This document shows, piece after piece, positions 21,018 through 23,044 of a DNA stretch of 39,767 nucleotides. Position 1 is the first letter of the stretch. Each line of letters opens with the position of its first letter. The DNA is from a phage. The stretch lies in the sequence record PV935351.1. One strand, given 5' to 3'. The position numbers and the translations under genes were made by a program. The notes beneath the pieces are model-generated. The model worked only from the letters and a program-made list of their open reading frames with translations. It made no database searches and had not been told where the DNA came from.

Positions 21018-21040
21018 ACTAAACTATCACTATAGGGAGA
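21018..21040 (+). promoter_or_regulatory. phage RNAP promoter for the major capsid gene (phi10-like)
   Basis: CTAAACTATCACTATAGGGAGACC; +1 to +8 GGGAGACC as in T7 phi10; leader stem GGGAGACC / GGTTCCCC; RBS AGGAGA...CATATG. Confidence 0.9.
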
Positions 21041-21142
21041 CCAAGAGAAAGACTCAAGGTTCCCCTATTACTTCAGTCCATACGGATTGGGCGTACAGTA
21101 AGTAATATACTTTATCTTTCAATTGAATAGGAGAATTATCAT

Positions 21143-22186
21143 ATGGCAAACGTTCCGGGTCAGAAAGTAGGTACAGACCAAGGCAAAGGTAAATCTGGTT
21201 CCGACGCTCTGGCGTTGTTCCTGAAGGTCTTTGCTGGCGAAGTCCTGACCGCATTCACTCGCCGCTCTGTAACTGCTGACAAGCATATTGTCCGTACCAT
21301 TCAGAACGGTAAGTCTGCTCAGTTCCCGGTCATGGGTCGCACCTCTGGTGTGTATCTGGCTCCGGGTGAGCGACTGTCCGATAAGCGTAAAGGTATCAAA
21401 CATACCGAGAAAAATATTACCATTGATGGTCTGCTGACTGCCGATGTGATGATTTTCGACATTGAAGACGCGATGAACCACTACGACGTGGCTGGCGAGT
21501 ATTCCAACCAGTTGGGTGAAGCTCTGGCTATCGCTGCTGATGGTGCGGTGCTGGCTGAAATGGCGATCCTGTGTAACCTCCCGGCTGCATCCAACGAGAA
21601 CATCGCTGGTCTGGGCACTGCGTCCGTACTGGAAGTTGGTAAGAAAGCTAACCTCGGCACCCCGGCTAAACTGGGTGAAGCAATCATTGGTCAACTGACC
21701 ATTGCTCGTGCGAAGCTGACCTCCAACTACGTTCCTGCTGGCGACCGTTACTTCTACACCACGCCTGACAACTACTCTGCGATCCTCGCTGCTCTGATGC
21801 CGAACGCTGCTAACTATGCTGCGCTGATTGACCCAGAGACTGGTAACATCCGTAACGTGATGGGCTTCGTTGTTGTTGAAGTTCCGCATCTGGTACAGGG
21901 TGGTGCAGGTGAGACCCGTGGTGAAGATGGTATCACTATCGCTTCCGGTCAGAAACACGCATTCCCGGCGACTGCTGCTGGCGACGTTAAAGTTGCTATG
22001 GACAACGTTGTTGGCCTGTTCTCTCACCGTTCTGCTGTGGGTACTGTGAAGCTGCGTGACTTGGCGCTGGAACGTGACCGTGACGTCGATGCTCAGGGCG
22101 ACCTGATTGTTGGTAAATACGCTATGGGTCACGGCGGTCTGCGTCCTGAAGCGGCTGGCGCACTGGTTTTCAGTCCAGCGTCGTAA
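21143..22186 (+). CDS. 10: major capsid protein 10A
   Basis: 347 aa; DALALFLKVFAGEVLTAF, KSAQFPV, YLAPGE, KHTEKNITIDGLLTADV, DIEDAMNHYDV, LMPNAANYAALIDPE, HRSAVGTVKLRDLALER, KYAMGHGGLRPEAAGA match recalled T7 gp10A. Confidence 0.98.
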   Translation: MANVPGQKVGTDQGKGKSGSDALALFLKVFAGEVLTAFTRRSVTADKHIVRTIQNGKSAQFPVMGRTSGVYLAPGERLSDKRKGIKHTEKNITIDGLLTADVMIFDIEDAMNHYDVAGEYSNQLGEALAIAADGAVLAEMAILCNLPAASNENIAGLGTASVLEVGKKANLGTPAKLGEAIIGQLTIARAKLTSNYVPAGDRYFYTTPDNYSAILAALMPNAANYAALIDPETGNIRNVMGFVVVEVPHLVQGGAGETRGEDGITIASGQKHAFPATAAGDVKVAMDNVVGLFSHRSAVGTVKLRDLALERDRDVDAQGDLIVGKYAMGHGGLRPEAAGALVFSPAS

Positions 22187-22317
22187 GCACCTTTAGCCAA
22201 CCTAACGTCGCTACAGTAGCGGCTGTACCTGAAGAGGAGACTCTAACTCCTCAACAGAAAGCTGCGCGTACTCGTGCTGCGAACAGGGCCGCTAAACTGG
22301 CTGAGTCCAACAACTAA
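22165..22317 (+). CDS. 10: C-terminal extension of minor capsid protein 10B, reached by programmed -1 frameshift
   Basis: GGTTTTC (22165-22171), 5 codons before the 10A stop; the -1 frame stays open for 48 codons to TAA at 22315-22317. Confidence 0.6.
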   Translation, partial: GFQSSVVSTFSQPNVATVAAVPEEETLTPQQKAARTRAANRAAKLAESNN

Positions 22318-22321
22318 TTGA

Positions 22322-22361
22322 AACCCCTTGGGTGCCTTCGGGTGCTTGAGGGGTTTTTTTG
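22322..22361 (+). terminator. late terminator (Tphi-like)
   Basis: AACCCCTTGGG...CTTGAGGGGTTTTTTTG; GC-rich hairpin plus U7 tract, close to recalled T7 Tphi. Confidence 0.85.
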
Positions 22362-22373
22362 CTTAAAGTGAGG

Positions 22374-22469
22374 ATGATTATGTTTTACTTACTTACAGCC
22401 TTGGGACTATTTGTTAGTTTCTGGGCGATTATATTATTAACCGGACCATGCAGTCCTTACGACAGATAG
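22374..22469 (+). CDS. hypothetical small hydrophobic peptide between Tphi and gene 11
   Basis: 31 aa MIMFYLLTALGLFVSFWAIILLTGPCSPYDR; GTGAGGATG RBS; one predicted TM helix. Confidence 0.35.
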   Translation: MIMFYLLTALGLFVSFWAIILLTGPCSPYDR

Positions 22470-22477
22470 GAGGGAGT

Positions 22478-23044
22478 ATGGCTCAATACATTCCACTGAA
22501 TGCTAACGATGACTTAGACGCTATCAACGATATGTTAGCTGCTATCGGTGAACCGGCAGTCCTACAGCTTGACGAGGGGAACGCTGACGTCTCGAACGCC
22601 CAACGTATCCTGCATCGTGTCAATCGTCAGGTCCAAGCTAAAGGCTGGAACTTTAACATCAACGAAGCTGCTGTCCTGACACCTGATGTCCAAGACAATA
22701 GGATTCGATTCTTGCCGTCATACCTTCGTGTAATGACCGCTGGGGCCACCAGCTACTACAGCAACATGGGTGGATACCTGTACGACCTGTCCACTCAGTC
22801 GACCACTTTCACCGACCCTATCACGGTAGAGCTTGTGGAGATGAAGCCATTCTCAGAGATGCCTGTGGTCTTCAGGGACTACATCGTCACTAAAGCTAGC
22901 CGTGAGTTCAACGCTAAGTTCTTCGGTAGCCCAGAGTCTGAACTGTACCTTCGTGAGCAGGAAGCAGAACTCTATCAGCAGGTCATGGAATACGAGATGG
23001 ATACTGGTCGCTACAACATGATGTCCGACATTGGGAGAGACTAA
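22478..23044 (+). CDS. 11: tail tubular protein A
   Basis: 188 aa from ATG 22478 (AGGAGGGAG RBS); GEP, VMTAGATSYYSNMGGYLYD, IVTKASREFNAKFFG, EYEMD match recalled T7 gp11. Confidence 0.93.
   Translation: MAQYIPLNANDDLDAINDMLAAIGEPAVLQLDEGNADVSNAQRILHRVNRQVQAKGWNFNINEAAVLTPDVQDNRIRFLPSYLRVMTAGATSYYSNMGGYLYDLSTQSTTFTDPITVELVEMKPFSEMPVVFRDYIVTKASREFNAKFFGSPESELYLREQEAELYQQVMEYEMDTGRYNMMSDIGRD

Follow-up and report, generated by a model that had tools for sequence, protein, structure and literature searches.

In its gene for the major capsid protein (gene 10), the phage considered in this study very probably carries a functional programmed -1 ribosomal frameshift of the T7 type, yielding 10B as a minor, C-terminally extended companion of the capsid protein 10A. 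The feature has already been described for T7, K1F and their relatives, and the case presented here is one more instance of it, with nothing biologically new. The sequence examined, PV935351.1 (39,767 bp, referred to in its entirety as the window), belongs to a T7-family podophage of the genus Kayfunavirus. Compared over a central piece of 24 kb, it is 95-97% identical to many K1F-like phages (to K1F itself at 95.2%, with 96% of the query covered), and no record identical to the window was found in the collection that was searched.

Gene 10A and its upstream signals

The following features mark the beginning of the gene and its extent in the zero frame:

21021..21040, + strand: promoter for the phage RNA polymerase (equivalent of phi10), upstream of gene 10, AAACTATCACTATAGGGAGA
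21129..21133, + strand: Shine-Dalgarno sequence AGGAG, 9 nt 5' of the ATG of gene 10, by direct reading of the sequence
21143..22186, + strand: gene 10A, major capsid protein, 347 aa, in the zero frame with stop codon TAA at 22184-22186, from the list of open reading frames

The product of gene 10A matches the Pfam family PF21703 (Gp10A-like) with an E-value of 8e-103, which identifies it as a major capsid protein of the T7 type (HK97 fold). Comparison with protein structures gave E-values of 7e-218 for the chain of a solved Kayfunavirus capsid (9vvq) and 3e-145 for 10A of T7 (2xvr). The 20-nt promoter sequence occurs eight times in the window at no more than three mismatches, always on the + strand, as compared to 0.01 occurrences expected, and a promoter is annotated at the homologous place in the genomes of EcoDS1 and CR44b.

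The slip site and the overlap between frames

Two features near the end of gene 10A bear on where a shift of frame could take place:

22150..22186, + strand: overlap of the zero and -1 frames, 37 nt, bounded by TGA at 22147-22149 in the -1 frame and by TAA at 22184-22186 in the zero frame
22165..22171, + strand: slippery heptamer G GUU UUC (Val342, Phe343), the same in sequence and register as that of T7

A first-pass annotation of the window had proposed the heptamer G GTT TTC as the site of a frameshift, lying five codons before the stop of 10A. The heptamer is indeed present at 22165-22171 and in the correct register: the frame of 10A reads G GTT (V342) TTC (F343), and after TTC come four sense codons (S P A S) and then, as the fifth codon, TAA. 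Since the -1 frame contains TGA at 22147-22149 and the zero frame ends with TAA at 22184-22186, a productive shift is confined to the region from 22150 to 22186. When this overlap is read codon by codon, TTC proves to be the sole codon whose tRNA is able to re-pair fully one base back.

The frame might conceivably change at the level of the RNA rather than on the ribosome, if the phage RNA polymerase slipped on the run of T's within the site. That run consists of four T's, but efficient slippage by polymerases is known from considerably longer homopolymers, and the requirement for the register of TTC fits the re-pairing of tRNA. Frames are known to be changed by transcriptional slippage as well, yet the review that describes it treats gene 10 of T7 as a case of ribosomal frameshifting (PMC5009743). 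I consider slippage by the polymerase to be extremely improbable as the basis of 10B in this phage, and ribosomal frameshifting is the reading pursued below.

The -1 frame and the predicted 10B protein

Three further features describe what a ribosome would meet after the shift:

22168..22317, + strand: region specific to 10B in the -1 frame, TTT (F343) followed by 48 codons and TAA, encoding the peptide FQSSVVSTFSQPNVATVAAVPEEETLTPQQKAARTRAANRAAKLAESNN
22243..22302, + strand: basic-helix block of the 10B tail, 20 codons, conserved in 14 distinct sequences, LTPQQKAARTRAANRAAKLA
22320..22360, + strand: Tphi-like intrinsic terminator, with a 17-bp stem, a UUCG loop and a run of U's, from folding; annotated as phiTE in EcoDS1

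Past its TGA, the -1 frame is open from 22150 to the TAA at 22315-22317. The slip codon TTT occupies 22168-22170 and is followed in the -1 frame by exactly 48 sense codons, the number claimed earlier, and the open frame extends 43 codons beyond the stop of 10A. The stop codon of 10B lies 2 nt 5' of the terminator hairpin, which agrees with the claim that the open frame ends just before a Tphi-like terminator. The protein predicted from the joined frames has 391 aa and a mass of 40.87 kDa, so that it is 44 residues longer than 10A (predicted mass 36.19 kDa). The predicted difference in mass is 4.7 kDa.

Alternatively, the -1 open reading frame might give rise to a small protein of its own, not fused to 10A by a frameshift. 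Annotators have taken this view in several GenBank records (those of 285P, SFP20, P15_PC2B6 and pEp_SNUABM_11), where a stand-alone gp10b or "minor capsid protein" open reading frame is given downstream of 10A. The frame in the window (22150-22314), however, has no ATG, GTG or TTG, and no ribosome-binding site is evident for it; the one near-cognate start within it is a single CTG, six codons before the stop. Independent initiation would also leave unexplained the linkage between the heptamer and the extension (described below), and in K1F a GFP joined to the end of the -1 open reading frame labels the virions (PMC6277420). A separate protein is, in my estimation, hardly credible, as compared to a fusion to 10A by frameshifting.

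The mechanism I propose is the following. Most ribosomes would pass G GUU UUC without leaving the zero frame and terminate five codons on, releasing the 347-aa 10A protein. In a minority of ribosomes, the peptidyl-tRNA-Val on GUU and the tRNA-Phe on UUC would both slip one base in the 5' direction, onto GGU and UUU, where the tRNA-Phe (anticodon GAA) would re-pair fully and the tRNA-Val only partly. The shifted ribosome would then read the 48 codons in the -1 frame and stop at 22315-22317, giving a 10B protein of 391 aa and 40.9 kDa. Such a protein would retain the complete capsid fold and add to it a C-terminal tail, made up of a flexible linker of about 30 residues and a basic helix of about 20 residues, and it would co-assemble with 10A as a minor subunit of the shell, with its tail on the outer surface. 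By analogy with T7, K1F and Kvp1, I infer that the frameshift occurs, that its efficiency may be about 10% and that 10B would be incorporated into virions.

The plain -1 open reading frame was modelled by AF2 from the single sequence, and the model consists of a flexible stretch followed by one helix, comprising residues 34-53 (pLDDT 80-87). As modelled, the 10B tail fits a linker and a basic helix exposed on the surface of the capsid.

Chance or selection

Judged from the sequence, the window by itself does not exclude that the arrangement arose by chance; the comparison with relatives does. GGTTTTC occurs three times in the window as compared to 3.9 expected, and the count, showing no enrichment, is uninformative. 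Nor is it remarkable for a gene to be followed by 43 or more open codons in the -1 frame: gene 10 ranks 15th amongst the 32 genes of the window in this respect, and the probability that 43 codons contain no stop is about 0.11. The significance of the site derives instead from three properties, namely the position and register of the heptamer within the 37-nt overlap, the conservation of the tail as protein, and the tendency of the heptamer and a long -1 open reading frame to be found together in relatives.

The last of these was assessed with a set of 84 distinct 3' ends of gene 10, taken from IMG/VR and GenBank. A -1 open reading frame of at least 40 codons is found in 37 of the 38 ends with GGTTTTC in register, as compared to 20 of the 46 ends without it (Fisher p = 5e-8), and the +1 frame is mostly closed after about 3 codons in these ends. 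The association extends to the choice of codons. The codon pair GTT TTC was seen in 41 distinct relatives, all of which have a long -1 open reading frame save one that carries an indel, whereas the -1 frames of those relatives in which x-Val-Phe is encoded by GTC TTC or GTA TTC are mostly short and unrelated. The amino acid pair Val-Phe is itself kept in 10A even in phages that do not have the extension.

The single exception among the 38 ends with the heptamer in register is Escherichia phage vB_EcoP_F (L011). Just past the stop of 10A, this genome has a deletion of 1 nt (gcggcgtagcacc against gcggcgtaagcacc in all relatives), by which the 43-codon tail of 10B is moved to the +1 frame and the -1 open reading frame is cut to 10 codons. 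The deletion represents either a sequencing error or a natural phage that makes no 10B. If it is not a sequencing error, then 10B may be dispensable.

The conservation of the tail as protein is seen over a wider range of phages. The tail predicted from the window is homologous to that of 10B in T7, and the motif EETLTPxQxAARTRAAN is common to both. A search by tblastn with the tail peptide, a short query of low complexity, recovered only tails of the Kayfunavirus type, and the wider family was reached through matches at the level of DNA. The pattern of substitutions was examined in the 20-codon block at 22243-22302, using 14 distinct sequences from Kayfunavirus, Teseptimavirus (T7), Berlinvirus, Unyawovirus, Minipunavirus, Teetrevirus and an Erwinia phage. 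Over these sequences the pN/pS ratio of the block is 0.21 for the -1 frame and 2.56 and 1.77 for the remaining frames, and the variable positions comprise 19 of the 20 third positions of codons, nine first positions and seven second positions. By this measure, the 20-codon block of the tail is under purifying selection in the -1 frame only.

These results bear on the possibility that the open -1 frame is never translated, being either a relic or a stretch conserved at the level of RNA (as 3' UTR or as the context of the terminator), with the heptamer doing nothing more than encoding a conserved Val-Phe. Such a view accommodates the ordinary length of the open frame and the lack of enrichment of the heptamer, along with the persistence of Val-Phe in the 10A proteins of phages that have no extension and the high conservation of the terminator. 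It does not accommodate substitutions that are protein-like in the -1 frame, with a low pN/pS and variability concentrated in third positions, nor a synonymous choice, GTT TTC, that tracks the presence of the extension, and there is in addition experimental support for the frameshift in T7, Kvp1 and K1F (PMC6277420, PMC5009743, PMC1635266, PMC2579914). I judge an untranslated -1 frame to be very improbable, and a tail translated as part of 10B is the reading that I retain. The first-pass annotation, which compared the arrangement to that of 10A and 10B in T7, is thus supported by a capsid gene of the T7 type, the same heptamer in the same register, a homologous tail that has no start of its own and a Tphi-like terminator.

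Comparison with known systems

The frameshift in gene 10 was first characterised in T7, in 1991. In T7 the homologous Val-Phe codons are read from G GUU UUC and lie 4-5 codons short of the 10A stop; the -1 tail of T7 ends just 5' of Tphi; and the stem of its terminator contains CCCC, all as in the window. The T7 site, written G_GU U_UUC, has been described by Atkins and colleagues in a review as intermediate between a hexanucleotide site and a full heptanucleotide site (PMC5009743), and about 10% of translations give 10B (PMC1635266). The two phages differ in the length of the tail past the 10A stop (52 codons in T7, 43 in the window), in the linker, which in T7 is unrelated in sequence, in the distance from the slip site to the terminator, which is longer in T7, and in the sequence upstream of the heptamer (GGUG in T7, GGCG in the window).

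The resemblance to K1F is much more detailed. Møller-Olsen et al. (2018) reported that gene 10 of K1F undergoes a -1 frameshift that adds 44 triplets (PMC6277420), and K1F has the identical heptamer and register, the same net extension of 44 codons and the same terminator as the window. Over the 49 residues counted from the slip codon, K1F differs from the window at three positions in the record AM084414 and at four in DQ111067. The C-terminus of 10A and the beginning of the tail read SPAS and QSSVV in the window, SPAE and QPSGV in K1F. The TGA at 22147 in the -1 frame of the window makes the overlap of the zero and -1 frames shorter there (37 nt) than in K1F (70 nt). Finally, the window has an additional 100 nt or so between the terminator and gene 11.

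The extension had also been put forward as usable for display, and this is already being practised on 10B of K1F: phages carrying g10b::gfp are stable and fluorescent (PMC6277420), and a study from 2026 displayed Ig-like adhesins on the protein (PMC13370021). The C-terminus of 10B is an established site for low-copy display in both T7 and K1F, and it would be a safe place for a tag in the present phage.

Outside these two phages, the same kind of -1 shift is known from the Kluyvera phage Kvp1, which belongs to a different genus from that of the window. Its 10B protein was identified by peptides in mass spectrometry and appeared as a minor band above the capsid protein, and the shift was placed at a poly-U/Phe site, TTTTCA (PMC2579914). 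In T3 and phiYeO3-12 the shift in gene 10 has been reported to take place at Lys codons and not at Phe (PMC2579914). Phages of this type share with the window the gene and the -1 direction of the shift, and the Teetrevirus 536_P3 has in its tail the motif LTPxQKAAxTRAxNKA. The latter phage has CCA AAG and no GGTTTTC, consistent with a shift of the T3 type at Lys codons.

A bacterial parallel is offered by dnaX of E. coli, where, as proposed for the window, tandem slippage of tRNAs by one base takes place on a heptamer in bacterial ribosomes. The heptamer of the dnaX cassette, A AAA AAG, is flanked by a Shine-Dalgarno sequence on its upstream side and by a hairpin on its downstream side, and the shift attains an efficiency of about 50% (PMC1635266); neither of the two flanking elements has a convincing counterpart in the window.

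Annotations of 10B in sequence records are uneven. A joined coding sequence for 10B is annotated in CR44b and in T7, and the record of EcoDS1 states that 10A "may be translated via slippery sequence" and marks a "region of similarity to gp10B". The stretch encoding 10B is unannotated or mislabelled in most relatives: in many Kayfunavirus records either the tail is unannotated or 10A is named "minor capsid protein", and both GenBank records of K1F are without an annotation of 10B. For the phage considered here, I recommend that the record contain a joined 10B coding sequence, consisting of 21143..22168 in the zero frame and continuing, with nucleotide 22168 read again, to 22317.

The terminator and possible stimulators of frameshifting

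Phages of several genera share the terminator hairpin, which together with its U run occupies 22320-22357 in the window and in which six pairs have changed on both sides (covariation). Its bases at 22324-22327 are CCCC. This element of Tphi has been reported to affect frameshifting in T7, a long-range effect that is unexplained (PMC5009743), and by analogy the region of the terminator may contribute to frameshifting in the present phage as well. A 49-nt region that includes the terminator (22312-22360 in the window) is 100% identical across phages assigned to several hosts and genera, amongst them phages of Pectobacterium, Klebsiella, Enterobacter and Salmonella, and the identity persists where the neighbouring tail is a different one.

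No convincing stimulatory structure was found close to the slip site. The 89 nt downstream fold weakly (-23.4 kcal/mol, z = -1.8), their hairpin closing a large loop, no conserved helix adjoins the slip site in a consensus fold computed from 11 relatives, and the interval 5-9 nt downstream of the heptamer, where cassettes of the dnaX and IS type have a stable structure, holds no stable conserved structure here. A search of Rfam gave no match above threshold. Upstream of the heptamer, where cassettes of that type can have a Shine-Dalgarno-like element at about 10 nt, the window has GGCG, as compared to GGTG in T7 and Berlinviruses; the difference falls at a synonymous position of a Gly codon, one that varies among relatives. 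Since there is no convincing proximal stimulator, the efficiency of the shift is not predictable from the sequence and could be low.

Two candidate elements were rejected. The terminator hairpin matched the Rfam family NsiR1 at 19 bits, below the gathering score of 39, and the match is attributed to chance. RNAalifold, applied to 11 sequences, proposed that the heptamer pairs with CAGAAAGCU, about 90 nt downstream in codons for Gln-Lys-Ala, and this too I regard as a coincidence. Both sides of the pairing are fixed by coding and neither shows any compensatory change, and the partners (of the form GRRRRYY) lie at variable positions and are absent in the relatives L091 and L023. Moreover, while the ribosome sits on the slip site and slips, that stretch of RNA is not free to pair.

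Possibly exchangeable extensions

Extensions of other kinds occupy the same place in related phages. In some sister Kayfunaviruses, an identical slip site (G GTT TTC) and terminator enclose an unlike -1 extension, about 87 residues long (...LSTEGPTLETYSSTVGTSLKVDFPELSDVTDWSLLEVTTPDGVSYSRRTNSLYFKATSG...). This extension, for which Pfam gave no match, is found at positions 1023-1313 of L004 (Shigella phage SFP20) and also in L012, L016-L025, L072, L076 and L077. The DNA of the sister phages with this type of extension resembles the window only in two flanks, appearing as matches in two pieces, a pattern suggestive of exchange of a cassette that lies between slip site and terminator.

Elsewhere among the Studiervirinae there are -1 extensions, 85-176 codons long, made of bacterial Ig-like domains of the Big_2 family (PF02368). 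These are seen in T7-like contigs from IMG/VR (L035, L040, L047, L051-L053, L055, L056, L063, L067 and L030); a Pfam scan gave E-values of 4e-15 for the extension of L035 and 1e-8 for that of L030, with the others assigned by resemblance in sequence. Most ends of the Big_2 type do not have GGTTTTC and therefore need another slip site. Variants of the site itself were also encountered, C GTT TTC in L028 and L029 and A GTT TTC in an Erwinia phage (L090).

The segment from the slip site to Tphi might, as a tentative suggestion that I hold to be somewhat doubtful, be a natural exchange slot, in which modules for low-copy display are swapped by recombination between conserved flanks. The conserved basic helix in tails of the T7 type could have a specific function.

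The region between the terminator and gene 11

The window contains, 3' of the terminator and ahead of gene 11, the segment of about 100 nt mentioned above (22362-22477), which is absent from K1F, EcoDS1 and CR44b. It occurs at 99% identity or more in 15 phage records only, most of which have no feature annotated within it. A small open reading frame overlaps the segment (22359-22469); read from the ATG at 22380, which is preceded by GAGGA, it would encode MFYLLTALGLFVSFWAIILLTGPCSPYDR, with one hydrophobic helix.

In the list of open reading frames, gene 11 begins with the ATG at 22448 (22448-23044, 198 aa). The true start of gene 11 is probably the ATG at 22478, because its homologues have 189 aa (567 nt) and because GGAGGGAG precedes that codon.
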